Shown in pieces: positions 15,310-45,760 of a DNA stretch of 64,000 nt. The position numbers were made by a program, and so were the translations under genes. Under the pieces are notes generated by a model. It was not told the origin of the DNA. It searched no databases and worked only from the letters and a program-made list of their open reading frames with translations. The stretch is from Candidatus Latescibacterota bacterium. GTDB taxonomy: Bacteria > Latescibacterota > UBA2968 > UBA8231. Position 1 is the stretch's first letter. Each line of letters begins with the position of its first letter. The stretch lies in the NCBI GenBank assembly GCA_965206595.1, contig OZ242214.1, positions 4,608,001 to 4,672,000 of the forward strand. The letters are read 5' to 3'.

Positions 15310-16200
15310 ATGGCTCGCAAAAGCACCATCGAGTGGACCAACAGCACCTGGAACCCGGTCACCGGCTGCACGAAGGTCAGTGCCGGTTGCGACCATTGCT
15401 ATGCCGAGCGCTTCTCCGAACGCTTTCGCGGCGTCAAAGGGCACCCCTTCGAGTCCGGCTTCGATCTGACCCTGCGCCCGGAGCGTATCGAGCAACCCGC
15501 GCACTGGCGGCGACCGCAGCTCATCTTCGTCAACTCGATGAGCGACCTCTTCCACAAGAACATTCCCACCGAGTACATCCACCGCGTATTCGACACGATG
15601 GAGCGTGCGGATTGGCACATTTACCAGGTTCTCACAAAACGCAGTTCGCTGATGCGCCGTTTCGTCCAGGGGCGTTATCGTGACGGAAAGGCACCACCGC
15701 ATATCTGGCTGGGAGTTTCCATCGAGAACGCCGCCGCCTTGACGCGACTCCGGCACCTGAAACAGACCAATGCCTCAGTGCGCTTCGTTTCCTTCGAGCC
15801 CCTGCTTGGCCCGCCGGGAGTGGTAGACCTTGAGGATATTCACTGGGTAATCGCGGGAGGCGAGAGCGGCCCGGGAGCGCGTCCGATGGAGGTCGAGTGG
15901 GTACGCGAATTGCGCGACCAGTGCCTGGGCCAGGGGGTCGCGTTTTTCTTCAAGCAATGGGGCGGGCGCACACCCAAAGCGGGCGGGAACAGGCTGGATG
16001 GCCGGCAGTGGCTGGAGTATCCGGACAGGCAGCGTCCTCGAAGCGATCGAAGATTTCCTCGCGGAGGGGCCTTGAGCTCTACTGCTCTTGCAAACCCCGC
16101 CAAAACCAACGTGGTTCACGCCCCGAAAGAAGTTCGAGCTTCGGGCGTACTGACCACCGCTCGAAACGTGAAGCATGAAGCTTTCCAAAAGGGGAGCTAA
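15310..16200 (+). CDS. DUF5131 / phage Gp37-Gp68 family three-Cys (radical-SAM-like) protein
   Basis: STIEWTNSTWNPVTGCTKVSAGCDHCYAE, FVNSMSDLFH, QVLTKR, WLGVSIE, SFEPLL, WVIAGGESGPGARPM, FFKQWGG. Confidence 0.93.
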   Translation: MARKSTIEWTNSTWNPVTGCTKVSAGCDHCYAERFSERFRGVKGHPFESGFDLTLRPERIEQPAHWRRPQLIFVNSMSDLFHKNIPTEYIHRVFDTMERADWHIYQVLTKRSSLMRRFVQGRYRDGKAPPHIWLGVSIENAAALTRLRHLKQTNASVRFVSFEPLLGPPGVVDLEDIHWVIAGGESGPGARPMEVEWVRELRDQCLGQGVAFFFKQWGGRTPKAGGNRLDGRQWLEYPDRQRPRSDRRFPRGGALSSTALANPAKTNVVHAPKEVRASGVLTTARNVKHEAFQKGS

Positions 16201-16203
16201 GGC

Positions 16204-17535
16204 GTGGCAAAGAACGTCCACGAAATCAGGGATCCCATTCATGTTTTCGTCCGCCTCGACAACTACGAACGCGAGGTGTTGGACTCACGTCCATTCCAGA
16301 GGTTGCGTCATATCCACCAACTTGCATTGACATATCTTGTTTACCCAGGAGCGACACACAAACGTTTCGAGCATTCTCTCGGTGTAATGGAACTGGCGAG
16401 CAGGGTTTTTGATGTCGTCACCAATTCCGCAAACGTAACCGATGAGATCCGAAACCATTTGAGTCAATTGGATAAACGCGATGATTTAAGTTATTGGAGA
16501 AGGGTCTTGCGAATGGCGGCCCTATGCCACGACATGGGTCACCTCCCATTCTCTCATTCGGCCGAAGAACTATTGCCGGATGGTTGGGACCATGAAAGGC
16601 TCACTCGAGAAATCATCACCAGCGACGAGATGGCATCAATTTGGAAGCAGGTAACCCCACCTCTTCGACAAGATGACATTATAAAACTTGCCGTAGGGCC
16701 AAAGAAAGCGGCGGATCTCAAGTTTTCATACTGGGAAGCGATTCTTTCGGAAATTATAGTTGGCGATGCTTTCGGGGTGGATAGAATGGACTACCTGCTG
16801 CGCGATTCTCATCACACCGGAGTCGCTTACGGGAAGTTCGACCACTATCGCTTGATCGATACTTTGCGCATTCTTCCGACACCCCCTTCGGGTGAAGAGG
16901 ACGATTCAGAAGAGCCCGCGCTCGGCGTTGAAGAGGGCGGTATTCAGTCGGCCGAAGCGTTAATGCTTGCACGTTACTTTATGTATTCGCAAGTCTATTT
17001 TCATCATATTCGGCGAATTTACGATATCCACTTAATTGATTTTCTAAAGGAGTGGCTTTCCAAGGGTGCCTTTCCGACGGATCTGCCGCCACACCTGTGC
17101 ATGACAGATAACGAAGTGACCGCTGGGTTGCTGAAAGCTGCTTTCGAGAAAAACGAACAAGGTCATCTACACGCTGGCCGTATTGTCAACAGAGGACATT
17201 TCAAACTTATTTACGAGCGAAACCCAAAGGATATCAAAGTCAATCCGGAGGCTGGAAAAGCGGTTTATAAAGCCCTGAGCGCCAAGTACGGAGCCGAGAA
17301 CTTTCGACACGATCGGTATCGTCAGGATAGTGGAGTACCGAATTTTCCAGTGCGCATGCGTGACGACCAGATCGTTTCCTCTTTGGGGCTATCGGAGGCT
17401 TTAAACCAGGTGCCTATGGTCTCAGTTGACTATGTATTCGCCGAACGAGAGCGGTACTGGGAAGTAAACAAATGGCTGAAAAAGAATCGAGAGGAAATCA
17501 TTAAACCGGTAGAAGAGGAGAAAGATGATGGATAG
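16204..17535 (+). CDS. HD-domain phosphohydrolase, SAMHD1/YwfO/EF1143-like dNTP triphosphohydrolase family
   Basis: IRDPIH, FQRLRHIHQL..VYPGATHKRFEHSLG, AALCHDMGHLPFSH, HE, DRMDYLLRDS, RYFMYSQVYFH. Confidence 0.9.
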   Translation: MAKNVHEIRDPIHVFVRLDNYEREVLDSRPFQRLRHIHQLALTYLVYPGATHKRFEHSLGVMELASRVFDVVTNSANVTDEIRNHLSQLDKRDDLSYWRRVLRMAALCHDMGHLPFSHSAEELLPDGWDHERLTREIITSDEMASIWKQVTPPLRQDDIIKLAVGPKKAADLKFSYWEAILSEIIVGDAFGVDRMDYLLRDSHHTGVAYGKFDHYRLIDTLRILPTPPSGEEDDSEEPALGVEEGGIQSAEALMLARYFMYSQVYFHHIRRIYDIHLIDFLKEWLSKGAFPTDLPPHLCMTDNEVTAGLLKAAFEKNEQGHLHAGRIVNRGHFKLIYERNPKDIKVNPEAGKAVYKALSAKYGAENFRHDRYRQDSGVPNFPVRMRDDQIVSSLGLSEALNQVPMVSVDYVFAERERYWEVNKWLKKNREEIIKPVEEEKDDG

Positions 17536-18085
17536 ACTCAGGAGGGCGGCACTGGTTACGCGTCTAATTGAACTGTTACGTGAGCAGGGTAGTTGGTGCG
17601 GAGAAACCCACATCCAGAAATCCACCCTTTTCGTCCAGGATTTGATGCAGGTCCCGCTGGGCTTCGATTTCATTCTGTACAAACACGGACCGTTTTCGTT
17701 CGATTTGAGGGACGAACTTACAGGCTATCGTGCCGATGGGTTGATTCGGCTGGAACCGCAATGGTCTTATGGACCCAGGATCACTCCCACCGATCGCAGT
17801 AAGTACATTCAGAGCATCAGCTCGAAGACCTTGGCGAAGTACGGCGACCGCGTCGCCTTCGTGGCCAATAAGGTCGGTGCCAAAAGTGTAACCGAGCTCG
17901 AAAGGTTGGCTACAGCGTTTTTCCTCAAACAACGCGCGGAGGCTGACGTTTCAGTCGACGATAGGTCCAGGCAGCTGACAGAACTCAAGCCCCACATCCT
18001 GCTTGAAAGCGCCAAAGCTGCTGTTGAAGAGGTCGACCGGATTATTGAAGAGGCTCACGCACACTGCGCAGAAGCTGGTGGATGA
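17525..18085 (+). CDS. YwgA/Panacea(DUF4065)-like winged-helix protein
   Basis: GETHIQKSTLF...FDFILYKHGPFSFDLRDEL...LERLATAFF pattern; overlaps the HD stop codon. Confidence 0.7.
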   Translation: MMDRLRRAALVTRLIELLREQGSWCGETHIQKSTLFVQDLMQVPLGFDFILYKHGPFSFDLRDELTGYRADGLIRLEPQWSYGPRITPTDRSKYIQSISSKTLAKYGDRVAFVANKVGAKSVTELERLATAFFLKQRAEADVSVDDRSRQLTELKPHILLESAKAAVEEVDRIIEEAHAHCAEAGG

Positions 18086-19905: not shown

Positions 19906-20463
19906 CGAAACGGGGGAGAGGATGTACGGTTCCATTACGGCCGGCGTCGCGTCGAAACCCTGTTGGCGTTTTTTGCCGCGTTCCTCCTCGCGTTTGTGAG
20001 TGTGGAACTGACCATGGATGCTTTTGGCTATCACGATCACGGTCATGGGATGCCCACAGCCATTGTGGAAGAAGCGGAAACCCATGGGATAGAAGACCAC
20101 GTTCACGACCACGACCATGACCAAGAACACCCCGAGGATGGCGAAGGGGGCTTAGGTCATTTGTTCTTTCTCGTCAGCGGAGTAATCGTCACTTCAGTGA
20201 TTGCCAAGGAAATACTTTTCCGCGTGACTCGGGGCAAGGGCATACGCCTGAACAGCCCCATGCTGATTGCGAAAGCATGGCATCATCGGGCCGATTCCAT
20301 CAGCGCCTTGGCGGTCCTGCTGAGCATTTTTATTTCATCCTATTTTCCGGCTTTCGCGTTGATTAATCCGGTCACCACGGTCGTGATCGCGGGCCTGATC
20401 TTACACAGTGCTTGGGAGGTTGGGAGCAACGCGGTCAAAGAGTTGATAGATTTCGCGCCCTCG

Positions 20464-21552
20464 CTAGTGTTGTGTCGCAGAGATTCGTTCGCAAAGTCTC
20501 TTGATTTTCGCGAGGATGGAATCGGCCGTAGCCGTCCACACGAAAGGGTGTGCGTTGGCGTTCCATTTGGCCGTGTAGCGTTCAATGCGCTCGATGAGCT
20601 CCGACACCTTGCGGAACGAATCGCGCCGAACCGCCTGGCGGGTAAGGATATTGAACCAGATCTCCACCTGATTGAGCCACGAAGCATAGGTGGGGGTGTA
20701 GTGAACGTGAAATCGGGGACGCCGTGCCAGCCATCGCTTGACCTTGGCCTGCTTATGCGTGGCGTAGTTGTCGACGACGAGATGAATATCGAGGTCAGCG
20801 GGGACGTGGGCCTCGATGTGGCGCAGGAACTGAAGGAACTCCTGGTGACGATGACGGGGCTTGCACTGGGTCATCACTTCCCCGGTGGCTACGTCCAAGG
20901 CGGCAAACAGGGTGGTGGTGCCATGGCGCTTGTAGTCGTGCGGTACCCCTTCCACGTATCCCAGTCCCAGGGGCAGCATGGGCTGACTTCGTTCCAACGC
21001 CTGGATCCGGCTCTTCTCGTCCACGCACAGCACCAGGGCGTGCTCGGGGGGATTCAGGTACAAGCCGACGATATCCCGTACTTTGTCGACAAAGAAAGGA
21101 TCGGTGGAAAGCTTGAAGTGCTTGTGTCGATGGGGCTGCAAACCATACGTGCGCCAAATGCGATGAACCGCGTCCTTGGTCAAGCCGGTTTCTTCGCCCA
21201 TGGAGCGCACCGACCACTGTGTTTCGTCTTTGGGCTTGGTCTTCAGGGTCTTGTATACCACCTCGGCTACCTGTTCATCCGTACTCGATCGTGGCGCCCC
21301 TGAGCGCAGCTCATCATGCAAGCCCGGGAGCCCGTTTTCGAGAAAGCGCCGGCGCCACTTGCCGACCGTAGCACGCGTCACACCCACGGCGGCGGCGACG
21401 GCTTCATTGGGCCAGCCTTCTGCGCCCAGCAGACTAATCTCGGCTCGCCGCACCAACCCGTGGGAAAGGCTCCGGGATTTGGCCATCGATTCCAATCGTT
21501 CCCGGTCCGACGGACTCAGCTCTAACGGCGGTAATGGACGCCCCGTCACCAT
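20464..21552 (-). CDS. IS630-family transposase
   Basis: N-terminal [41 protein letters not shown] (DDE). Confidence 0.95.
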
Positions 21553-21633
21553 AGGTCTCTCCTTTCAGAAAGGGGATAAGAGAAACCTACGGCACCTTCA
21601 ATTGTTTGTACAGTTAATTACACGACAGGACAC
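20467..21633 (-). mobile_element. IS630-family insertion sequence
   Basis: CTAG at both junctions (TA duplication 20465-66 / 21634-35); IRs TAGTGTTGTGTCG / TAGTGTCCTGTCG. Confidence 0.92.
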
Positions 21634-21979
21634 TAGAGACGATAGCCCTAATCGAAGAGATGGCGGAAGAGGTAGCAGGCGTAACATTTACCCACAATAT
21701 TCGCATCCGGTCCATGGGTGGTGCCCTGTATGTTGAATTAACGGCGGAAACCGATCCAGAGCTCACGGTAGCAGAAGGGTACGCAGTCGTTAAACAGATC
21801 CGTGAAAAGATAATGGATAAAGTGCCCAATGTGATCGACGTCGCCACCCAGCTAACACCGAAAGGCGAGTACATCCGGCAGTTTCTGGGATCAGAAAGGT
21901 GAATACGGGAAGAAGTGGACCTACTGGTGTGGTGGGAAGATGATGTCCCGCAAGAAACGACTGCGGATCAGGGGACCCC

Positions 21980-23215
21980 TCACCGGTCGCTAGTGCTGGA
22001 CCGGAAACGAAGATTGAACAGCATATCCTCGTAGCCGTTGCGCAGGGCACCGGCCCGAAAGCGCCAGACGATCAGAGCGATGAGGAGCAAAGCGCTTCCC
22101 CATTGCAGGAACTGAATAGCCGGCGAATGGGAGGCGTCGAGGTTCACGGAAATCGTCAGGCCAGCGGCCAGAAGCAGCGCGTCGATGGCGATGCCGAGGA
22201 TGACCGTAACCGCGATGACTGCGGCAACATAGATGGATGCGAAGCGGGAGCCGAACTGGCTGACGATGATCGCGATGGTGCCCGTATTGGTGGCCGGTCC
22301 GGTCATGAGGAAAATCAGCGCCGCACCGGGGCTGACTCCCTTGGCAACTAGTGCGGCGGCGATCGGAGTACTGGCGGAAGCGCAGATATAGAGGGGAATG
22401 CCGATCAGCACCATGATCGGATAGGATAGCCAGCGGGCATACTCGTTTGACATCAGGTCGCCTGGAATCGCCAGAAAGAGCACTCCTCCCAAGGCAACGC
22501 CCACCAGCAGCGCAAAGAGAATGTCGTCCGCTATCTCAATGAAGCCATAGCGAAAGACGTGCTTGACCAGCTTCTTGAAATCTAGACTCTGATCGTCTGT
22601 GGAGACATCGCCCGGAGAAGGATCGCTAGTGGCATTTCCCTTCAACCAGTTGACCAATAACACCTTCAATTGCGAAGGGCTGACGTAGCAATCATCTCTA
22701 TCAGCTATGAGGGATTGGTGCGAGCCATGATCGTGATCACAGTCATGGCAGTGGTCGGGGTCGCTCGCCTTGGCTTCGTCGCGGTCGTCTTTTATGAGGC
22801 CAATGCAAAAGATCCCGGCGACGATCGCGGTGATGAAGCTGATGACGGGCCGGACAATGGCAACTACGAAGCCGAAGAACGCATTGGTGACTAGAATTGA
22901 GTCCGCGCCTGTTTCCGGCGCAGTTATCAGGAAGGACATGCAGGCCGAACGGGACGCGCCCTTCCGGCGCATCTCAGCGACTACCGGTACAACCGAACAA
23001 CTACATAGCGGCACGGGCACGCCGATGGCCGAGCTTGTGGTTACGGATTTTAGACTGTCGTCGCGGAGCCAGCGGAGTATGGCCTGACGGGAGATGAACA
23101 CATGAATCAGGCCGGAAAGGAATAGCCCCAGCAACAGCATGGGTGCTAGCAACAGGAAGGATGACCAGAGGAAGTCGAAAAAACTGGTCAATATCCCAAG
23201 AAATTCAAAGGTCAC
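21980..23215 (-). CDS. SO_0444/ArsP (DUF318) family metal permease
   Basis: GVPVPLCSCSVVP, FLITAPETGADS, His-rich DHCHDCDHDHGSH, PLYICASASTPIAA, GPATN. Confidence 0.88.
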   Translation of the reverse strand: MTFEFLGILTSFFDFLWSSFLLLAPMLLLGLFLSGLIHVFISRQAILRWLRDDSLKSVTTSSAIGVPVPLCSCSVVPVVAEMRRKGASRSACMSFLITAPETGADSILVTNAFFGFVVAIVRPVISFITAIVAGIFCIGLIKDDRDEAKASDPDHCHDCDHDHGSHQSLIADRDDCYVSPSQLKVLLVNWLKGNATSDPSPGDVSTDDQSLDFKKLVKHVFRYGFIEIADDILFALLVGVALGGVLFLAIPGDLMSNEYARWLSYPIMVLIGIPLYICASASTPIAAALVAKGVSPGAALIFLMTGPATNTGTIAIIVSQFGSRFASIYVAAVIAVTVILGIAIDALLLAAGLTISVNLDASHSPAIQFLQWGSALLLIALIVWRFRAGALRNGYEDMLFNLRFRSSTSDR

Positions 23216-23326
23216 TCAATAGCCTCCTGTGCAATTGCATTGAGATAATAAGGCGACGAGACTCTTAAATATGCATATATAAGGCTATAGACGGCGCTGG
23301 GCCGAAATTTTGGTCGAGACGCCTGA

Positions 23327-26300
23327 TTAGAAGGCCACTTTTTCCCGTTCCGCCAAAAGCTCTTCCGCCTCTCCGCGATTCAGTTGCACGGCAAACCACT
23401 TGTAGAGCGCCGGCAGCACCAGCAGGGTCAGTACAGTGGAGCTGACCAGGCCGCCGACTACTACCGTGGCCAGGGGCCGCTGTACCTCGCTGCCGGTGCC
23501 GCTGGAAAAAAGCAACGGGAGCAGCCCCAGGGCGGTCGTCAGGGCGGTCATCAGCACCGGCCGCACCCGCAGACATGCACCCTGGACCGAGGCCTCGTCA
23601 AGGTCGACGCCGTCGCGGACCAGCTGGTTGAAGTAGGTCACCATCACCATGCTGTTTTCCAGGGCGATTCCGAACAGGGCGATGAAACCGACCGATGAAG
23701 GCACGGACAGGTTCTGTCCGGTCAGCCACAGGGCCACCACCCCGCCGACCAGCGCCAGGGGGATGTTGAGCAGGATGAGAATCGCGTTTTTCAGCGAATT
23801 GAAGCTGGAGAACAGAAGCAGGAAAATCACGAATAGAGTGATGGGCACGACGATGGCCAGCCGTTTGTTGGCCTCCTGCTGCAGTCGGAACTGGCCGCCC
23901 CAGGTCACGAGGTAGCCCGGGGGCAGCGCCACCCGGTCTTCTATCGCCTCCTGGGCCTCCTCGACGAACGAGCCGATATCCCTGTCGGTGACGTTGCACT
24001 GAACCGTGATGAAGCGTTGGCTCTTTTCCCGGGTGATCTGGCGCGGCCCCACCACTTCTTCGATCCGGGCCAGCTGAACCAGAGGGATCTGGACGCCCAT
24101 TGGGGACTGAACCAGGATTTGGGCGATGGCCTCGGGACTGCTGCGGAATTGCGGGGCGAAGCGCACCAGGATGTCGAAGCGGCGAATCCCTTCGAACACC
24201 TGCCCCACCATCTCCCCGCCAACGGCCGCCTGAACCACCTTCTGCACGTCGGCGACGTTGACACCGTAGCGGGCGATGGCCTGCCGGTCGACGCGGATGA
24301 GCAGCTGAGGGGTGCCGCTGATCTGGTCGACCTGGACATCGGCCGCCCCCGTGACCGTGTCGACCACCCGGGCGATTACGTCCGCCTTCTGTTTCAGCAC
24401 CTCGAGATCGTCCCCGAAGAGCTTGATGGCCAGCTCTGCCCGCACCCCTTCGAGCAGCTCATCCACGGTCATGGCGATCGGCTGGGTGAAGTTGGTCAGC
24501 ACACCGGGTATTTCCCCCAGCTCGGCGCGAATGGTTTCCTGCAGCTCTTCCTGGTTTCGAGCCTCACGCCACCGGTCCCTGGGCTGGAGCAGGAGAAACA
24601 TCTCGGCGCTGTTGATGGGGTCCGTGTGGGCGCCGACCTCGCCGCGGCCGATGCGGGAAACCGCGCCGGAGATCTCGGGGATTTTCAGCAGGCGGCGCTC
24701 GACCAGCATGGTGATGCGGGTGCTCTCCTCGAGCGAGATGGAGGGGGCCATGGTCAGCCTGAGGACCAAGGTTCCCTCCTGCAGCGCCGGGGTGAACTCC
24801 GACCCCAGCCGCGGGAAGATCGCCAGCCCGACAAGCAGAAGGATGCCTGCCGACCCCAGGGCCCAGAAGCGGTGGGCAACGAAACGAGCGACCATGGGTC
24901 GGTAAGTAGCCACGAGATGGCGCATCATCCAGCCTTCGCCGGCTCGTGCGCCCTCGCCCCTGGATTTGGGTGAGCGCAGCAAAAGGTGCGACAACACCGG
25001 GGCGAGGAAGAGGGCGAAGACCAGCGAGCCCAGCATCGCCATGGCCACGGTGTAGGCCAGCGGCCGGAAGGTCTTCCCCTCCACCCCCTGGAGGGTGAAC
25101 AGGGGCAGGAAGACGAGGATGATGATGAGGATGGCGAAGACGATGGGGCGGCCGACTTCCACACAGGCGCGGGCAACGGCCTGGACGCGTTCCTCGTCCG
25201 CTTCGCCCTGCCGCAGGATGCGGTCGACGTTCTCGACCACGACGATGGTGCCGTCGACCATTATGCCGATGGCGATGGCCAGGCCGCCAAGGGACATGAG
25301 GTTTGCCGAGAGGCCGAAATAGTGCATGCCGAGGGTGGCGAACAGGACGGAGAAGGGAATGGACAGGGCCACCACCAGACTTGGCCGGACGCTGCCCATG
25401 AACAGGATCAACACCAGCGTGACCAGAACAATGCCCTGAATCAGGGCGTCGGTGACCGTGGCCACGCATGCCGCCACCAGGGTCTTCTGCTCGTAGTAGG
25501 GAACCAGGCGCACGCCGGCGGGCAAAATGCGGTTGATCTCCTGCATCTTCGCTTCGACCCGCTCGATCACGGTGGAGGAATTGGTGCCGAAGAGCTTGAT
25601 CACCATGCCGGCGACCACTTCTTCCACGCCGTTGCGGGTCTGCACGCCGCGCCGGATCGCCCCGCCGATGCCCACCTCGGCCACCTGGTCGAGGAAGATG
25701 GGAGTTCCGTCGGACGCCTTGATGACGATGTTCTCGATGTCGGCGACCGTGGAGGCCAGGCCCACCGAGCGCACGACGTATTCCTCGGCGTCCTTCTCGA
25801 TGAACTGGGCGCCGACGTTGAGGTTATTGGCTTCGATCTGCTCGATGACGTCGTGCAGGGTCACCCCGTAGCGCAACAGGGCGTGGGGATCGACCACTAC
25901 GTGGAACTGTTTCTCGTGGCCGCCGATGCCGAGGACCTCGGTGACTCCCGGCACGGTCTGCAGGTGGAACTTGACCAGCCAATCCTGGATCGTGCGCAGC
26001 TCTTCGAGCGCGTGCTCGCCGGTGGTGTCTTCGAGGTAGTAGAAGAGCACCAGTCCCATGCCGGTCGAGATCGGCCCCAGTGCCGGTTCGCCGAACCCTT
26101 CCGGGATCTGTTCTCTGGCCTCCTGGAGCCGTTCGTTGACCAGTTGGCGGGCAAAGTAGATATCCATCCCGTCTTCGAAATAGATGTTGACGACCGAGAG
26201 GCCGAAGTTGGAGACGGAGCGGATGTTCTCGATGCCTGGGAGGCCGTTCATCACCGTCTCGATGGGATAGGTGACGTAGGTTTCGATCTCTTCCGGGGCC

Positions 26301-36869: not shown

Positions 36870-38324
36870 CTACCTGTAGCGGGTAATCCGGCCCTCCTGC
36901 AGACGTTGCCAGTAATCCTGGAGACAGGCCTTGATTTGCGGGCTCAGGAGCACGCCGCCGAGGATGTTGGGGAAGGCCATGCCGAGGATCATCATGTCGG
37001 TGAATCCGATGATGTTGTCGAGAGCCGTCACACTGCCGAGGAAGACGAAAAGAACGAAAATGAAGCGGAAGAGGATAACCGTGGCGGGGCCGAAGAGATA
37101 TTCCCAGGCGCGTTCGCCGTAATACGACCAGGAGATCATCGTCGAATACGCAAACAGGGTGACAGCCAGGGCCAGAACGTATCGCGCCCCGGGGATGAAG
37201 GACTCGAAGGCCGCCGCGGTCATGCGCGCCCCCACGATGGAGCCCCCGGAGGACTGGAACTGCGGATCCTGGTAGACGCCGGTCAGCAGGCAGACAAGCG
37301 CCGTCATCATGCAGATGACGATGGTGTCGATGAAGGGGCCGATCATGGCGACGATCCCCTCCCGCGCCGCTTCGTTCGTCTTGGCAGCCGCGTGCGCGAA
37401 GGCCGCGGACCCGAGTCCGGCTTCGTTGGAGAAGGCCGCACGGCGGATGCCCCAGACCAGGGTGTAGATGAAGCCGCCGCCGACCGCGCGGCCTGTGAAG
37501 GCGTCTTCGATGATCAGGGCGATCATGCCCGGCAGCTCGCCGATGTGGGCGAGGATGATGAACAGGCAAACGGCGACGTACAACACGCACATTAACGGCA
37601 CGATCCGCGAGGTGACGCGGCCGATGCGGCGGATGCCGCCGATGATGACGAGGCCGACGAGGAGAGCCATGAGGAGGCCGACCGCCCAGTTGAAGTCGCG
37701 AAACCCCGGGTGCACGGTTCCCAGTACCTCGAGTGTCTGATTCGCCTGGAACATGTTGCCGCCTCCCAGGCTGCCGCCGATGGTCAGCACGGCGAAAAGC
37801 ACCGCCAGGGTACGTCCAAACTCCAGCCAGCCCTTGGCGCCGAGGCCCTGCTCCAAGTAGTACATGGGGCCGCCGGCGATACGGCCGCCGGGGTGGATAC
37901 GACGGTACATCACCGCCAAGGTGCAGGAGGCGAGCTTCGAGGCCATGCCGAAGAGGGCGGTGACAACCATCCAGAAGACGGCCCCCGGGCCGCCGACGCT
38001 GACGGCGATGGCAACTCCGGCGATGTTGCCGAGGCCGATCGTCGCCGACAGGGCGCTGGTCAGGGCCTGAAAGTGGGATATCTCCCCCGGGTCGGAGGGG
38101 TCGTCGTAGCGGCCGCGAATGACGTCGATGGAATGGCGAAAGGCGCGGATCGTCAGCCAGGAGAAGTAGAAGCTGTAGTAGATGCCGCCGAGTAGCAGGA
38201 CGGCGACGATAAGGGGCAGGCCGCTGCCGAAATCGGCGAACAGAAAGAGGTTGAGGACCTCGACGACACTGCCGAACAGGGTGTCGATGGCGGCGAGCTG
38301 CTCGTGAATCCAAGCGTTATTCAT
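36870..38324 (-). CDS. Alanine/glycine:cation symporter (AGCS family)
   Basis: GEISHFQAL..ALSATIGLGNIAGVA, GGPGAVFWM, GGPMYY, FSNEAGLGS, PFIDT. Confidence 0.94.
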   Translation of the reverse strand: MNNAWIHEQLAAIDTLFGSVVEVLNLFLFADFGSGLPLIVAVLLLGGIYYSFYFSWLTIRAFRHSIDVIRGRYDDPSDPGEISHFQALTSALSATIGLGNIAGVAIAVSVGGPGAVFWMVVTALFGMASKLASCTLAVMYRRIHPGGRIAGGPMYYLEQGLGAKGWLEFGRTLAVLFAVLTIGGSLGGGNMFQANQTLEVLGTVHPGFRDFNWAVGLLMALLVGLVIIGGIRRIGRVTSRIVPLMCVLYVAVCLFIILAHIGELPGMIALIIEDAFTGRAVGGGFIYTLVWGIRRAAFSNEAGLGSAAFAHAAAKTNEAAREGIVAMIGPFIDTIVICMMTALVCLLTGVYQDPQFQSSGGSIVGARMTAAAFESFIPGARYVLALAVTLFAYSTMISWSYYGERAWEYLFGPATVILFRFIFVLFVFLGSVTALDNIIGFTDMMILGMAFPNILGGVLLSPQIKACLQDYWQRLQEGRITRYR

Positions 38325-38495: not shown

Positions 38496-39212
38496 CTAAG
38501 GGCTTCTTCCTTCGGCAGGCATCCAATCGGGCAATCCGCCCTCGATCCTGACGGTGAGCCGTTCCGGCCTGGCGGCGTCGGGCTCGAAGGCGCGCTCGAT
38601 CACGAGCAACGCCATCGGGACGCGGTGCAGGCGCGCTTTCCGCATCGCCGCGAAGAAACGCAGGTTCTCGCGCTCGACCAGGTCCGGTTCAGGTGAGGTT
38701 CCGCTGCAGATCAGCAGGCAGACCTCGAGGCCGCGGCGCTCCGCCGCCTCGAAGGTGAGAGCGGTGTGATTCAGCGTCCCGAGGCCGGGACGGGCGACGA
38801 CGGCCAGGGCGGCGTTGAGGCGCAGGGCGAGGTCGGCGAAATCCCGCTTCTCATCGATCGGCACCAGAAGCCCCCCCGAGCCCTCCACCAGGGTGAGGTC
38901 GTGAGACGCGGCCACGGACTCGCACTGCCCCACCAGGGTCTCGAAGTCGAGCCGCAGCCCGGCGCGCCGGGCTGCGATCAGCGGCGCCAGCGGTTCGGGG
39001 AAAGAGGCCAGCGTCCCCAGGGTCACGTCCATTCCGTGGAGGGCGGCGCGGTAGAACGCCTCGTCGCCGTCGACCTCCGGATCGGCGCCGGTCTGGACCG
39101 CCTTAATCAGGGCAACCCTTCCCGCCTGCGACGCTTTCCACGCGAGCCAGGCGGAAGCGACCGTTTTGCCGACGCCGGTGTCGGTCCCGGTCACGAGCAC
39201 GACCCTACCCAC
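38496..39212 (-). CDS. bioD: Dethiobiotin synthetase
   Basis: VTGTDTGVGKT, KAVQTG, VEGSGGLLVP, LGTLNHT. Confidence 0.93.
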   Translation of the reverse strand: MGRVVLVTGTDTGVGKTVASAWLAWKASQAGRVALIKAVQTGADPEVDGDEAFYRAALHGMDVTLGTLASFPEPLAPLIAARRAGLRLDFETLVGQCESVAASHDLTLVEGSGGLLVPIDEKRDFADLALRLNAALAVVARPGLGTLNHTALTFEAAERRGLEVCLLICSGTSPEPDLVERENLRFFAAMRKARLHRVPMALLVIERAFEPDAARPERLTVRIEGGLPDWMPAEGRSP

Positions 39213-40386
39213 GGAAGGATTCCATCGCCGCCACGACCTGCTTCAGGTGCTCTTCTTCGTGAGCCGCGGTGACCCCGAAGCGGATCCGCGACGTCCCCCG
39301 GGGAACCGCAGGAGGCCGCACCGCCCGCGCCAGGATGCCGTGTGCCTTGAGATGCTCTTCGGCGGCGGCGGCGGCGGCTGGCCTGCCGAGGATCACCGGC
39401 ACGATCTGCGAGGTGGAGCAGGAGGGTGGGTAGCCGAGGCGCATCAGCCCGGAGCGCAAGGCCGCCCCAAGGTCGAGGACCCGCTTCCGTCGCCACGGCT
39501 CCTCCCGCGCGACATCGAGCGCGGCGCCGGCCGCCGCCACCGCCGACGGCGGCAGCGCCGTATCGAAGATGAAGGTGCGGGCGCGGTCGATGAGGAAGTC
39601 GACGAGGCCCTGGTCGCCGGCGACGAAGCCGCCGATCGAGCCCAGCGCCTTCGAAAGCGTACCGGTGACCACGGCCGGGACGTCGAGGTCGAAGCCCCCC
39701 AGGAGACCGGAGCCGCCGCCGAAAAGGCCGATGGCGTGGGCCTCGTCGACGACCAGCATGGCATGGTGGCGCGACGCCGTTTCTCCCAGGGCATCGAGGG
39801 GCGCCAGGTCGCCGTCCATGCTGAAGACGCTCTCGGTCACGACCAGGCGGCGGCGGGCAGGGGTCCGCCGCAGGAGATCGTCGAGGCGGCCGGAGTCGTT
39901 GTGCGGGTAGGGTAGGGCAGTCGCTCCCGACAACCTGGCGCCGTCGATGACCGAGGCGTGGGCGCGCTCGTCGTAGAAGATCGCGTCCCCGCTTCCGGCC
40001 AAGGCGGAGAGCAGGCCGATGTTGGCCATGTACCCCGAGCTGAACAGCAGGGAGGACTGCCGCCCTGTCATCCGCGCCAGCCGTTCCTGCAGGTCGTCGT
40101 GGAGGGGAGTGGAGCCGTGAAGTAGCCGTGCCGACCCCGCCCCGGCGCCGAATCGGCCGGCGGCCTCGCCGGCCGCTGCAGTCACCTCCGGGTGTGCCCC
40201 AAGCCCGAGGTAGTCGTTCGAGGTGAAAAGGACGCATTCGCGGCCGGCGAGGCAGGCCCGGACCCCGGTGCGGCTCTCCGGAGTCACCACCGACCGCCGC
40301 AGTCCGAGTCGCTCGAGACGGTTGCGTTCCGAGCGCAGGAAGTCAGCCCAGGGTCGAGGTGGACCGGGCGACGCTGTCGAGTCCAT
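39205..40386 (-). CDS. bioF: 8-amino-7-oxononanoate synthase
   Basis: SNDYLGL, HASVIDG, ESVFSMDGD, DEAHA, GTLSKALG. Confidence 0.94.
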   Translation of the reverse strand: MDSTASPGPPRPWADFLRSERNRLERLGLRRSVVTPESRTGVRACLAGRECVLFTSNDYLGLGAHPEVTAAAGEAAGRFGAGAGSARLLHGSTPLHDDLQERLARMTGRQSSLLFSSGYMANIGLLSALAGSGDAIFYDERAHASVIDGARLSGATALPYPHNDSGRLDDLLRRTPARRRLVVTESVFSMDGDLAPLDALGETASRHHAMLVVDEAHAIGLFGGGSGLLGGFDLDVPAVVTGTLSKALGSIGGFVAGDQGLVDFLIDRARTFIFDTALPPSAVAAAGAALDVAREEPWRRKRVLDLGAALRSGLMRLGYPPSCSTSQIVPVILGRPAAAAAAEEHLKAHGILARAVRPPAVPRGTSRIRFGVTAAHEEEHLKQVVAAMESFRG

Positions 40387-41695
40387 ACCTCACCGCCGCG
40401 CAGATCTGCGCGAGCTCGTTCTTTTCAATGGAAAGGGGGGGCATCAGCACCACGGTGTCCCCGAGCGGCCTCACGAATACTCCCCGGTCCCGCGCTCTCA
40501 TGCATGCCCGCCATCCCGCATGCTCCGAGGCGGGCAGCGGCCGCTTGGTGACGCGGTCGGCGACGATATCGACAGCGGCCATCAACCCCTGCTGGCGAAT
40601 CTCCCCTGCGAGGGGATGCTCGCCGAGCACTTCGCGCAGGTTCTCGCCGAGGAAGGAGGCGCGCCTGGCGACCCGGGCGAGGACGGGCTCGCGCTCGAAG
40701 ATATCGAGACTCGCCAGGGCCGCGGCGCAGGCGATCGGGTTTCCCCCGTAGGTATGCCCGTGGAAGAGCGTCTTGCCGTAATCGTGCGGGTCGTGGAAGG
40801 CGTCGTACACGCGATCGCTCGCCACCGTTGCCGAGAGGGGCAGGCAGCCGCCGCTGATCCCCTTGCCCAATACCATGATATCAGGGGTTACTCCTTCGAG
40901 GTCGCAGGCGAACATGGCGCCGGTTTTTCCGAAGCCGGTGGCCACTTCGTCGGCGATGAGCAGCAGGTCGTGTGAACGGCAGAGGTCGGCGACAAGGCGG
41001 AGGTGGCCTTCCGGGGCGACGATCATTCCCGCCGCACCCTGGACCCGCGGCTCGACGACCACCGCGGCGATCTCCCCGGCGCGCGCCGCGAGGAGACGCT
41101 CCAGCGAACCGACGCAAGCGAGGCTGCAGCCGCTTTCCGGCGAACAGAGCGAACAGCCGAGGGCGTGCGGATTGGCGAACCGCAACGGCTCGAACAGGGC
41201 GGCCTCGTACGGCTTGCGGAAGGGCCCGTCGCCCCCAAGAGACGCAGCACCGAGGGTATCGCCGTGGTACGCCATCTCCATTACGGCGAAGCGGCGGCGC
41301 TCCGGGCGGCCGCTGTTGACCCAGAACTGGAGCGCCATCTTGAGCGCCACCTCGACCGCGCTGGCGCCGTCGGAGCTGTAAAAGAAACGGTTCAATCCTT
41401 TGGGGACGTGGGCGGCGAGCCGCTCCGTGAGCTCGATCGCCGGGGTGTGCCCGGCGCCGAGAAGGGTGCTGTGTTGCAACCGCTCCGCCTGGCGCCTGAT
41501 CGCTTCGACGATGTGCGGATGCCCGTGGCCGTGAACAATCGCCCAGAGCGAGGCCACGCCGTCGATGTACTCACGTCCGTCCCTGTCGATGAGGCGGTTG
41601 CCCTCGGCTCGGTCGACGATCAGCCTTGGTTCGCTGTCGTAGCGAGCCATCGGGGTGAAGGCGTTCCAGATGCCAGCCGGGTGCTTTCGAGTCAC
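40343..41695 (-). CDS. bioA: Adenosylmethionine-8-amino-7-oxononanoate aminotransferase
   Basis: GTG start overlapping the bioB stop; IWNAFT, YHGDTLG, DEVATGFGKTG, GKGISGG, HGHTYGGNP. Confidence 0.94.
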   Translation of the reverse strand: MTRKHPAGIWNAFTPMARYDSEPRLIVDRAEGNRLIDRDGREYIDGVASLWAIVHGHGHPHIVEAIRRQAERLQHSTLLGAGHTPAIELTERLAAHVPKGLNRFFYSSDGASAVEVALKMALQFWVNSGRPERRRFAVMEMAYHGDTLGAASLGGDGPFRKPYEAALFEPLRFANPHALGCSLCSPESGCSLACVGSLERLLAARAGEIAAVVVEPRVQGAAGMIVAPEGHLRLVADLCRSHDLLLIADEVATGFGKTGAMFACDLEGVTPDIMVLGKGISGGCLPLSATVASDRVYDAFHDPHDYGKTLFHGHTYGGNPIACAAALASLDIFEREPVLARVARRASFLGENLREVLGEHPLAGEIRQQGLMAAVDIVADRVTKRPLPASEHAGWRACMRARDRGVFVRPLGDTVVLMPPLSIEKNELAQICAAVRYGLDSVARSTSTLG

Positions 41696-42684
41696 GCCTC
41701 TTCGACCTCGAACCCCATGTCCTCGATCATCTGCAGCGCCTCCCTGGTGCCTTGACCCGGGGTGGTGAGGTAACCCTCGACGAAGATTGAGTTCGCCGCG
41801 TATAGGGCCAGCGGCTGCAGCGACCGCAGATGCAGCTCGCGTCCGCCGGCGACGCGGATCTCCCGGTGGGGATGCAGCAGCCGCGCCAGGCAGAGGATCC
41901 GCAGGCAGTGGAGGGGGCTCAGCCTCCACGTCCCCTCGAGGGGTGTGCCGGAGATGGGATGGAGGAAGTTGACCGGTATCGACCGCGGCTCGAGGTCGCG
42001 GAGCGCCATGAGGACGTCGATCACGTCCTCGTCCGTTTCCCCCATACCGAAGATCGCACCGCTGCAGAGGTCGAGCCCGGCCTTGCGCGCGGCCTGCAGC
42101 GTCTTCACCCGGTCGTTGTAACCGTGGGTGGTGACGACGCTGGGAGTGAACCGCTCGCTGGTATTCAGGTTGTGGTTCAGCTGGTCGATCCCGGCCTTTT
42201 TCAGCGCCCTCGCTTTCTCCTCGTCGAGCAGTCCGACACAGGCGCATATCCCGATATCGACCTCCTCGCGGATGTTGCGCACGGCGTCGGCCAGGTATTC
42301 CACCTCGCGCCAGGACGCCCCCCGTCCGCTTGTAACGATGCAGAAACGCTTGGCCCGGGAGCGCTTGGCTGCCCGAGCCTCTGCGAGCAACTGCTCCTGG
42401 CTCACCATGGGGTATTTCTCGATGGCCGCCTCCGAGACCCGCGATTGCGAGCAGTAGCCGCAGTCCTCGGGACAGAGACCGCTTTTGGCGTTCATCAGGA
42501 CATGCAGGTGCACCTTGTCGCCACAGAAGCGGCGGCGCACCCGGTAGGTCTCGGCGAGCAGGGCGGGCACCTCGCTGTCCTGAGAGCCGAGAACCGCGGC
42601 GCACTCCGCGTGCGTCAGGGGCTCCCCGGCGATCGCCTTGTCGGCCAGGGCTGGGAAGCTGGGAATGGTGGAAGTCGTATTCAT
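41692..42684 (-). CDS. bioB: Biotin synthase
   Basis: NAKSGLCPEDCGYCSQS, NHNLNTS, CSGAIFGMGE, PVNFL, AGGRE. Confidence 0.96.
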   Translation of the reverse strand: MNTTSTIPSFPALADKAIAGEPLTHAECAAVLGSQDSEVPALLAETYRVRRRFCGDKVHLHVLMNAKSGLCPEDCGYCSQSRVSEAAIEKYPMVSQEQLLAEARAAKRSRAKRFCIVTSGRGASWREVEYLADAVRNIREEVDIGICACVGLLDEEKARALKKAGIDQLNHNLNTSERFTPSVVTTHGYNDRVKTLQAARKAGLDLCSGAIFGMGETDEDVIDVLMALRDLEPRSIPVNFLHPISGTPLEGTWRLSPLHCLRILCLARLLHPHREIRVAGGRELHLRSLQPLALYAANSIFVEGYLTTPGQGTREALQMIEDMGFEVEEA

Positions 42685-42731
42685 TCTATAGGTGTCCTGT
42701 TGGTAATGTTGCAGGATATGGCGGGATGCCT

Positions 42732-43967
42732 TCAGGGCGCGGGGGCGGAAAAGAGGAGGACGGCGTTGTGGCCGCCAAAGCCGAACGAGTTCGAAAGCAC
42801 CCGTGCGAGCGGCCTTCGGAGCACCTCGCCGCGCACGCAGGAGATGCCCATTTCGTCGATGCTCTCGCAGTTGATCGTCGGCGGGACGGACCCCGACTCG
42901 ACAGCCTTGGCCGCGGCGACCGCCTGGGCAGCTCCGGAGGCGGCGAGCATGTGGCCCGTCATCGACTTGATCGCGGTTACCGGAACGGGGCCCAGCGCTT
43001 CCCCGAGGGAGGCGCCCAAGGCGCGAACCTCGGCCTCGTCGCCTGCCCGGGTGCCGGCTGCGTGGGCGAATATCGCGCTGACCTCGCGAGGACCGGTGCC
43101 GGCCTTCTCCAGTGCCCGGGAGATGGCCTTCGCCGCGGCTGCACCGTTCGGTTCCGGCCTCGTTTCGTGCACCCCATCGGTCGTTGCGCCGTACCCGGAG
43201 AGCTCGGCGTAGACGCGGGCGCCCCGTCTTCTGGCATGATCCAGCTCCTCGAGAACGAGGACTGCGGCACCCTCGGCGAGCACGAATCCGTCCCGGTCGC
43301 GGTCGAAAGGGCGGCAGGCACGCTGCGGCTCGGCGTTGCGCCGCGACAGCGCTCCGAGAGCGTGGTCGCCGGCCAGGGTCAGCGGGGTTATGCAAGCCTC
43401 GGCGGCGCCGGCGACCATCACCTCGGCATCCCCCCTGCGGATGATCTCGGAAGCCTCGCCGAGGGCGTGGCCACCGGTGGCGCACGCGGAGGAGAGGGCG
43501 AAGCCAGGGCCGCGGAGGTCGAGCAGCATCGCGGCCTGGGCGGCGGCCATGTTGCTGAGCATGCGCGGGATCAGCAAGGGACTCGCGGCTTTTCGACCGG
43601 GGATCGGACCGAGGGCGGCGGCGGCCTGAAGGGCTGTGTTTTCGCCGCCGTGGCTGGAGCCCAGCACGATCCCCGAATCGTACGGATCGTGAGCTTCGAT
43701 TCCGGCGTCCTGCCAGGCCTGCAACGCCGCCCCGACTCCGAACAGGGCGTACCTGTCGAGGCGCCGGGCACGTCTGCGGTCGATTTCGGCAGGGAGCGTG
43801 AATTCCGTGACCTCGCCGGCGATGCGCACCGGGAAGGCGCCGGCATCGAAGAGAGTGATCGGACCGACCCCTGACTGCCCGGCGCACAGTCGGTCCCAGA
43901 AACGGGCGGCACCGGAACCAAGTGGAGTCACGGCCCCCAAGCCGGTGACGGCCACCCTCCGGCTCAT
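42732..43967 (-). CDS. Beta-ketoacyl-ACP synthase, FabF/FabB-type
   Basis: VAVTGLGAVTPLG, SSACATG (Cys), PFDRDRDGFVLAEG, AHAAGT (His), KSMTGH (His), NSFGFGGHN. Confidence 0.92.
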   Translation of the reverse strand: MSRRVAVTGLGAVTPLGSGAARFWDRLCAGQSGVGPITLFDAGAFPVRIAGEVTEFTLPAEIDRRRARRLDRYALFGVGAALQAWQDAGIEAHDPYDSGIVLGSSHGGENTALQAAAALGPIPGRKAASPLLIPRMLSNMAAAQAAMLLDLRGPGFALSSACATGGHALGEASEIIRRGDAEVMVAGAAEACITPLTLAGDHALGALSRRNAEPQRACRPFDRDRDGFVLAEGAAVLVLEELDHARRRGARVYAELSGYGATTDGVHETRPEPNGAAAAKAISRALEKAGTGPREVSAIFAHAAGTRAGDEAEVRALGASLGEALGPVPVTAIKSMTGHMLAASGAAQAVAAAKAVESGSVPPTINCESIDEMGISCVRGEVLRRPLARVLSNSFGFGGHNAVLLFSAPAP

Positions 43968-44313
43968 GGTGTCACTGTCTTTGGTTCTCCCGGCCGGATG
44001 GGGCAACGGGAAAGCGAGGCGTGACCGCATATCGGTTCGCGCCGAAGCGTTTCAACGCCCTTCAGGAGGTACGCCTCCAAGGCAGAATTCCCGCGCCGCC
44101 CCGGATAGGCCGGGGGGCCGGAGCCCTGGCGGGGGAAGCCAGCGGAACTGCGGCCGCGGTTGCGGCCGCGAACTCCAGACCTGGGGAACCCTTTCATGGA
44201 TCGATCAGACCCTTTTACAGCTCGTTTTTTTGGTCATACCGAGAATATACACCGGCTGAAGGAGTCCCGTTCGCCGGCAAAACGGGAGCCGCCGGAGGCG
44301 CCGACCATCCTGC

Positions 44314-44342
44314 TTGACAGCCTGTCGATACCACCTTAGCCT
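44314..44342 (+). promoter_or_regulatory. Sigma70-type promoter upstream of nqrA
   Basis: TTGACA-N17-TAGCCT. Confidence 0.55.
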
Positions 44343-44353
44343 GTAAGGCTTGA

Positions 44354-45759
<1,406 letters not shown>

Positions 45760-45760
<1 letters not shown>

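Follow-up and report, generated by a model that had tools for sequence, protein, structure and literature searches.

A FabF-like ketosynthase heads the biotin operon

The stretch of DNA analyzed here (the window) is 64,000 nucleotides (nt) long and covers positions 4,608,001 to 4,672,000 of the single-contig genome (7.05 Mb, ~65% G+C) of a Candidatus Latescibacterota bacterium. It carries a biotin (bio) operon that begins with a gene for a ketosynthase (KS) resembling FabF, or beta-ketoacyl-ACP synthase II (KAS II; ACP, acyl carrier protein), of fatty acid synthesis (FAS). Five genes are encoded on the minus strand at 38496 to 43967, in the 5' to 3' order KS-bioB-bioA-bioF-bioD. The KS gene (42732 to 43967) codes for 411 amino acids (aa), with the KAS I/II domains PF00109 and PF02801 and no other Pfam domain, and belongs to what we call the His108/Asp202 clade. 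It is followed by bioB (biotin synthase, 41692 to 42684; 330 aa; TIGR00433, 389.3 bits against a cut-off of 225), bioA (40343 to 41695; 450 aa; TIGR00508, 487.7 bits against 405), bioF (8-amino-7-oxononanoate synthase, 39205 to 40386; 393 aa; PF00155), which at 405 bits is slightly below the TIGR00858 cut-off of 426.45, and bioD (dethiobiotin synthase, 38496 to 39212; 238 aa; TIGR00347, 123.2 bits against 83.3).

The genes are tightly packed, with a 47-nt gap between KS and bioB, a bioB stop codon that abuts the bioA GTG, and overlaps of 44 nt (bioA/bioF) and 8 nt (bioF/bioD). The KS start (ATG at 43967) is backed by an ATG/GTG-AGC-CGG start that is kept in relatives, and bioA is read from the GTG at 41695, with an alternative ATG at 41650. 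An earlier sequence-only reading of this DNA had described a FabF-like KS ahead of closely spaced bioB, bioA, bioF, and bioD genes and had seen neither an ACP gene nor further fab genes in the vicinity. All five genes are present as it placed them, and a tblastn search of the 64-kb window with Escherichia coli AcpP and FabG queries (E≤1e-5) found no homolog of either.

The ketosynthase is a FabF paralog with a predicted polar acyl pocket

Three genes in the genome match the fabF model, at 607.1, 446.6, and 285 bits. The first, which is over the cut-off, is the housekeeping fabF and lies within a fabH-fabD-fabG-acpP-fabF cluster at 6.803 to 6.808 Mb; the second is the bio-linked KS, which is thus a paralog of the housekeeping FabF. 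The separate housekeeping gene on which the sequence-only reading had made its proposal depend is therefore present. The KS falls below the cut-off of the fabF equivalog TIGR03150 (493.75 bits) and so is not classified as an equivalog, and it passes the broader KAS II subfamily NF005589 (433.5 bits against 387). It shares 44% identity with the housekeeping FabF of this genome and, among the matches listed, 41 to 47% with FabFs from many phyla. A search of 5.8 billion proteins returned its relatives as a graded series, from 96% down to ~49% identity.

We aligned 87 clade sequences with 29 canonical FabFs, including those of E. coli and of this genome, and use E. coli numbering unless stated. 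Residues C162, H302, and H339 of the KS align with the Cys-His-His triad of E. coli FabF (C163, H303, and H340), and K334 and F397 align with K335 and with F400 of the GFGG gate loop. The triad is thus intact, as had been noted from the sequence, and the observation that the canonical AHGTST motif reads AHAAGT (residues 301 to 306 of the KS) holds as well. The only clade-wide change in that motif is G304A; T305A is a trait of the window's subclade, with Thr in 62/87 clade members and Ala in 22/87.

Ile108 and Phe202 are described as a "back gate" to the pocket in which FabF holds its acyl chain, and their identity is said to set chain length (bioRxiv 10.1101/2021.02.13.431092). A second account has Ile108 guiding the acyl chain and residues 138 to 140 differing in the pocket (PMC4606726). 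Ile is found at position 108 in all 29 canonical sequences and Phe at 202 in 27 of them. The clade has His at 108 (86/87, with Arg in 1/87) and Asp at 202 (86/87), and the window KS has His and Asp, respectively, so that the hydrophobic gate is missing. At least 10 further positions are altered across the clade. These include Glu at position 111 (87/87; Ile, Val, or Leu in canonical FabFs and Leu in E. coli), Arg at 136 (76/87; mostly Met), Cys at 193 (81/87; Val or Ala, the latter in E. coli), Glu at 269 (82/87; Ile, Val, or Met, the last in E. coli), Arg or His at 271 (70/87 and 14/87; mostly Ala, with Ser in E. coli), and Gln at 349 (86/87; Glu in 29/29), as well as N301F, G304A, S333A, and D289K. 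All catalytic residues are kept, and C163, H303, H340, K335, F400, D265, T270, and T307 are unchanged.

The clade alignment was used to build an AlphaFold (AF2) model, which has high confidence (predicted local distance difference test score of 93.4) and matches FabF structures with a template modeling score of 0.96 and a root mean square deviation of 1.5 Å, so the positional equivalences should hold. The KS is thus predicted to have a FabF (KAS II) fold with an acyl pocket rebuilt by His, Asp, Glu, and Arg. The sequence-only reading had looked for a carboxylate-binding residue in the pocket, and this part of it stands to the extent that the clade-wide His/Asp replacement of I108/F202 and the additional charged residues, Arg among them, are present; that they bind a carboxylate is something we infer.

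Two atypical proteins are of note. P0056 is alone in the clade in having Arg at position 108, and it carries His rather than Asp at 202, a single paired change that hints that the two positions touch. P0264 contains GSSRGGE (Arg108 and Glu111) yet retains Phe202 and the canonical His-Gly-Thr motif, and on this pattern could be either intermediate or an independent form. P0264 came from a clade-profile search of 1.84 billion representatives, in which the top 150 were dominated by giant multi-KS polyketide synthases; the full signature was found in none of nine proteins examined, and P0264 has it in part. Look-alikes of the KS in the ESM Atlas were also considered and were rejected, being generic KS clusters only.

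Pimeloyl-route genes elsewhere in the genome

The sequence-only reading had listed bioC, bioH, and bioW among the genes lacking from the operon, and searches of the whole genome point the same way. No BioC is found over the cut-off, and the 20 weak, partial matches are generic methyltransferases (best, 61.6 against 184.95 bits); similarly, no BioH is found over the cut-off, with five weak matches (best, 37.9 against 206.95 bits). BioW and BioG have no match in the genome, in a survey that did not extend to BioE, BioK, BioJ, and BioV. The BioC-BioH route is thus not recognizable, although divergent forms could be among the weak generic matches.

We note a self-contained mini-FAS cluster at 2.690 to 2.696 Mb (G000:C1:2690437-2695989) that codes for a short-chain dehydrogenase/reductase, a FabH-like protein, a FabA-like protein, a KS, an ACP, and a PlsC-type acyltransferase. 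It was considered as a hidden pimeloyl pathway like that of Desulfovibrio and was rejected: homologs of its KS are in genomes G019 and G009, both of which lack bioB, so the cluster is probably not biotin specific. It probably makes a specialized lipid.

The ketosynthase clade is linked to biotin genes in different phyla

A maximum likelihood tree was built from 94 KS sequences, with E. coli FabB and this genome's third KS as the root. In it the signature-bearing proteins form a single branch of length 0.52 with a Shimodaira-Hasegawa-like approximate likelihood ratio test (SH-aLRT) support of 100, and each of the 46 rows on this branch has His or Arg at 108. Its sister group consists of canonical FabFs, the named members of which are from Chloroflexota metagenome-assembled genomes (MAGs), although this fork is weak (support, 91). 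The genome's own FabF is elsewhere in the tree, outside the clade.

Nine of 168 genomes from the window's phylum have a KS match at E≤1e-110, of which seven are orthologs (85 to 100% identity) and two are canonical-FabF-like (45 to 47% identity). The orthologs are present in all three genomes of the window's own genus and in four of the 10 that represent another genus (g18), where the four genomes with KS are exactly the four with bioB. Five of six neighborhoods from the phylum show the complete KS-bioB-bioA-bioF-bioD cluster, and the sixth, which begins at a contig end, shows KS-bioB-bioA only. In a sample of 401 genomes belonging to the same phylum as a Chloroflexia MAG, three carry a clade KS (55 to 61% identity), adjoining bioF-bioA-bioD-bioB in two of the three; all three genomes have bioB, their matches to the BioC model are only partial (best per genome, 63.7 to 67.7 bits), and none of them has a BioW.

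To these we added metagenome contigs retrieved with a DNA pattern drawn solely from motifs internal to KS (Met140-Ala141, Thr-Pro-Leu-Thr-x-x-Gly-Asp202, and His-Glu269-Thr, at fixed spacing). The pattern yielded nine contigs, and bioB is directly beside KS in eight of them, in the order bioF-bioA-bioD-bioB-KS. The KS of the ninth (L163) is identical to that of the third Chloroflexota genome (G417), and the two unlinked cases are thus one sequence. Overall, there are 11 distinct contexts outside the window's family, and the KS is bio linked in 10 of them, extending beyond close kin the linkage that the sequence-only reading had suggested surveying. The junction is also tight: among six clusters mapped, the bioB/KS overlap is 31 nt in four and 1 nt in another, the sixth having no called bioB open reading frame (ORF). 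The linkage to bioB is nearly obligate and, at many loci, translationally coupled.

Canonical FabF genes keep different company. At 80 control FabF loci (mean, 11.9 kb), taken among the matches listed, AcpP is alongside in 57 and FabG in 42, none has bioF, bioA, or bioD alongside, and one has a bioB that is 6 kb away and on the other strand. In contrast, no AcpP or FabG homolog is present at any of 18 clade loci (E≤1e-5), and the acpP/fabG/fabD/fabH company usual for FabF is missing from both these loci and the window KS. The flanks of the clusters vary by locus and include ribonucleotide reductase, UvrD, ComEC, HrcA/GrpE, and a solute-binding protein, so KS is the only conserved addition to bioFADB.

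In one Chloroflexota genome, two small ORFs sit between KS and bioB (L141:10144-11023, minus strand). One codes for a DUF5615 protein of 119 aa and the other for a protein of 169 aa that matches no Pfam family, and they look like a toxin-antitoxin-type pair.

Apparent replacement of a BioC-type cluster

Four sister genera of the same family (loci L147 to L150) have a different bio cluster between the Na:alanine symporter (with panB) and nqrA, the same neighbors as in the window. In genus g14 this cluster includes bioF, a gene for a 228-aa alpha/beta hydrolase, a BioC-like methyltransferase gene, bioD, and bioA, with bioB opposite, and its proteins are 36 to 40% identical to those of the window; in genera g9, g3, and g11 the site holds bioF-bioD-bioA together with bioB but lacks a methyltransferase gene. 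Across the sister genera, the Bio proteins are 32 to 41% identical to the window's; identity is higher for proteins of KS-linked clusters from other phyla (BioB, 57 to 66%; BioA, 44 to 49%; BioF, 46 to 48%). Among genomes with both genes on one contig, a full-length BioC-like gene (106 to 141 bits, below the strict cut-off) is 2 to 3 kb from bioB in 31/31 genomes of g14 and 5/5 of g13. No BioC-like gene is found in the KS-bearing genera at E≤1e-25, and BioC-linked and KS-linked clusters exclude each other within the family.

In the BioB tree, all KS-linked BioB proteins (6 from the family and 10 from elsewhere) form one clade (SH-aLRT, 97), and the same-family BioB proteins without KS (L147 to L150) are set apart by a very long branch of their own, with 1.78 changes per site, and appear to be a different BioB type. 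The sister group of the KS-linked clade comprises BioB proteins from the class to which the window belongs. The BioB and KS trees, as reconstructed, agree. KS and the late bio genes thus appear to travel as one module across phyla, and here this module apparently displaced a BioC-type cluster in situ. The donor is indicated only weakly, with the KS tree pointing to Chloroflexota and the BioB tree to the window's own class.

A proposed role in pimeloyl supply

BioF requires a pimeloyl thioester. FAS enzymes expect hydrophobic chains, and E. coli masks the omega-carboxyl as a methyl ester. We propose that the KS is a FabF-derived condensing enzyme dedicated to biotin synthesis that supplies the pimeloyl moiety for BioF, and put the probability of this at about 60%; that it acts in pimeloyl supply at all seems likely. 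A dedicated KAS II-type enzyme for a pimeloyl precursor was also the core of the sequence-only reading, and it now draws support from the paralogy, the absence of recognizable routes, and the conserved linkage, from which we infer the function.

The KS would be acylated by a short acyl-ACP with a free omega-carboxyl, followed by condensation with malonyl-ACP. Malonyl-ACP would give 3-oxoglutaryl-ACP in a first round, to be reduced to glutaryl-ACP, and glutaryl-ACP would give 3-oxopimeloyl-ACP in a second, to be reduced to pimeloyl-ACP, with the housekeeping ACP, FabG, FabZ, and FabI serving in the reductions. The His108/Asp202 cap is predicted to close the pocket at ~C5 to C7 and to hold the carboxylate, in which case the free acid would need no methyl ester disguise from BioC and BioH. 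The changes near His303 (N301F and G304A) and E349Q might, more speculatively, bear on malonyl priming. Housekeeping FAS II is reported to reduce free-carboxyl 3-ketopimeloyl-ACP to pimeloyl-ACP (PMC12625853). We rate the two-round, malonyl-primed scheme in particular at a little short of even odds. The complete single-gene route is put forward more tentatively still: a His-Asp-capped, Arg/Glu-lined FabF-derived KS would prime with malonyl-ACP without decarboxylating it and go through two rounds to pimeloyl-ACP, using ordinary ACP and reductases and no BioC/BioH methyl ester, as part of a five-gene bioF-A-D-B-KS module that moves between phyla.

Several observations weigh against this proposal. 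FabF-type enzymes normally decarboxylate malonyl-ACP and do not prime with it, and malonyl priming is therefore the weakest step of the scheme. Apart from I108 and F202, the changed residues are placed in the pocket by presumption, with residues 111, 136 to 138, and 193 taken to line it as in FabB and FabF structures. A divergent methyltransferase or esterase may be encoded elsewhere in the genome, as the BioC and BioH models are narrow and, of 14 control genomes, just two have a BioC that exceeds the cut-off. The genome also has one P450 gene, 370 kb from the operon, and a second FabH-like gene, the one in the mini-FAS cluster, the FabH model matching two genes other than the bio KS. In G417, the clade KS is away from the bio genes, with bioB elsewhere in the genome. 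A single gene order is common to all 10 of the linked contexts found outside the family, which therefore may represent few independent events. Finally, loci L148 (G010), L149 (G004), and L150 (G012), of g9, g3, and g11, have neither a BioC-like gene nor a His108 KS; lacking a recognizable route is thus common in this family, and route absence alone does not give the KS the job.

The main rival is a single BioZ-like round that starts from glutaryl-ACP or glutaryl-coenzyme A (CoA) and is completed by the housekeeping FabG, FabZ, and FabI. The bio linkage and the polar pocket fit it equally well, and it avoids the difficult malonyl-priming step. KAS II enzymes, however, take acyl-ACP rather than acyl-CoA primers, and the clusters have neither a transacylase gene nor a CaiB-like one as a conserved neighbor. 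BioZ shows that, given glutaryl, one extra KS together with FAS II suffices (PMC7645780, PMC12625853). We regard this single-round alternative as unlikely though serious. The KS could instead serve within a methyl ester route, elongating malonyl-ACP methyl ester better than FabF does, with an unrecognized methyltransferase and esterase encoded elsewhere. The weak BioC-model (20; best, 61.6 bits) and BioH-model (5) matches in the genome would provide candidates, particularly as the BioC cut-off is strict enough to pass only the two control genomes noted above, and at one locus (L158) an alpha/beta hydrolase gene is downstream of KS. But a methyl ester mimics a hydrophobic chain and the KS pocket is predicted to be charged and polar, no methyltransferase is conserved beside any cluster, and BioC and KS linkage are mutually exclusive in the family; a methyl ester role is thus very improbable.

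It is also conceivable that the KS has no part in pimeloyl supply and has another job, such as making a special short-chain lipid or octanoyl for lipoate, or that it is a hitchhiker by descent. The unlinked clade member is consistent with this, as are the shared gene order of the 10 linked contexts, whose linkage may simply be inherited, and the biotin genes of relatives that work without the KS. However, the linkage has outlived both rearrangement (KS-B-A-F-D here and F-A-D-B-KS elsewhere) and transfer between phyla, bioB and KS overlap in five of the six mapped clusters (by 31 nt in four and 1 nt in a fifth), the KS in g18 is confined to the four bioB genomes, and canonical FabF is beside bioF, bioA, or bioD at 0 of 80 loci. 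We consider a KS without a pimeloyl role to be distinctly improbable and favor the biotin-dedicated condensing enzyme.

Relationship to known pimeloyl routes

The closest parallel is in Desulfovibrio vulgaris, in which DVU2560 to DVU2563 (coding for FabZ-like and FabG-like proteins, an ACP, and a FabF-like KS) are needed for growth without biotin, as shown by randomly barcoded transposon sequencing (RB-TnSeq; PMC10102598). A FabF-type KS in a bio cluster thus has precedent, and as here it is in a genome without bioC and bioH. The chemistry proposed there is the same, taking malonyl-ACP on to pimeloyl-ACP with no methyl esters, and its authors predicted less hydrophobic active sites (PMC10102598), a type of change that the KS clade shows. 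The systems differ in that the KS here is alone, with no ACP or FabG-like or FabZ-like gene beside the 18 clade loci or in the window, and in that no nitroreductase-like partner is evident. The biochemistry of the Desulfovibrio fab-type cluster is still to be worked out (PMC10102598). We also sampled the Desulfobacterota side (bioB in five "delta proteobacterium"/Desulfobacterales MAGs and bioF in 201 genomes from the phylum to which one of these belongs), and found no KS near bio genes at 62 bioF-family loci (30 + 12 + 20) and four bioB loci.

BioZ of alpha-proteobacteria is similarly a FAS-derived condensing enzyme in a bio operon that replaces BioC-BioH (PMC7645780, PMC8024396, PMC12625853), in genomes that, like this one, lack BioC-BioH and BioW. 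It hands free-carboxyl 3-oxopimeloyl-ACP to the housekeeping FAS II (PMC12625853), as proposed for the KS here. BioZ is, however, a KAS III (FabH-like) enzyme with a Cys-His-Asn triad and an acyl-CoA primer, whereas the KS here is a KAS II enzyme with Cys-His-His. The glutaryl pocket of BioZ is described as largely hydrophobic, with two Ser residues bonding the carboxyl (PMC12625853), whereas the KS has charged gate residues. With housekeeping FabF the KS shares the fold, the dimer-type family, the triad, K335, F400 in the GFGG loop, and the loop 2 residues D265 and T270; it differs in scoring below the equivalog cut-off, in the altered back gate, and in being almost always beside bioB and never beside acpP or fabG.

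The BioC-BioH (or BioG, BioK, BioJ, or BioV), BioI-BioW, and BioE-BioL routes likewise end in the pimeloyl thioester that BioF uses, but with enzymes unrelated to the KS (a methyltransferase and an esterase, a P450 and a ligase, and a diiron oxygenase, respectively). Four pimeloyl routes (BioC-BioH, BioI-BioW, BioZ, and BioE) were counted in 2025, and none of these resembles the one proposed here (PMC12704756). The routes listed in the sequence-only reading were incomplete, as BioE-BioL and the Desulfovibrio bio-fab cluster were omitted. Full-text literature searches, from whose coverage most subscription journals are absent, turned up no account of this clade or of bio operons in which a FabF-type KS stands alone. 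The clade probably represents a KS-based, methyl-ester-free variant of pimeloyl-ACP synthesis, for which the Desulfovibrio cluster is the sole precedent found.

Pimeloyl supply is a variable and still incompletely described part of biotin synthesis, and the clade offers a minimal, testable case with one extra gene beside bioFADB. The signature GSSHGGE plus Asp202 could be used to annotate genomes that are now scored as having no pimeloyl route. If the proposal is right, the clade would be a natural experiment in which a KS pocket was retuned from hydrophobic chains to a charged dicarboxylate, with a bearing on KS engineering and on the production of odd-chain diacids.

Flanking regions, upstream sequences, and RNA data

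The genes flanking the operon are unrelated to biotin synthesis. To the left is a Na:alanine symporter gene (36870 to 38324, minus strand; PF01235), which marks the left edge of the replaced locus, with genes for a DUF4159 protein and pyruvate dehydrogenase E1, E2, and E3; to the right, a divergent nqrA-F operon begins with nqrA (44408 to 45760, plus strand; NqrA domains), the right edge of the locus. The region between KS and nqrA (43968 to 44407) presumably contains the promoter(s). In an alignment of six such upstream regions, blocks 5' of KS are conserved only inside the genus, and no BirA-type operator was identified among them. A scan with the sigma-70 consensus found no sigma-70-like site in the KS upstream region, and there are five terminator-like sites, compared with 3.3 expected.

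One RNA-labeled run, a sponge metatranscriptome, covers a small share (0.05) of the stretch, with contigs of 156 to 228 nt that are 85 to 97% alike and fall on bioA, bioB, and KS (window positions 40236 to 44074). This library holds the operon of a relative, with DNA carry-over possible, and none of its contigs bridges the KS-bioB junction. Three further runs, only doubtfully of RNA, gave nothing more than 30- to 75-nt pieces of unrelated contigs. Elsewhere in the window, G+C dips to 0.51 at 16001 to 18000 and to 0.56 to 0.58 at 20001 to 24000, compared with 0.65 to 0.69 in the surroundings, and these two stretches may be foreign DNA.

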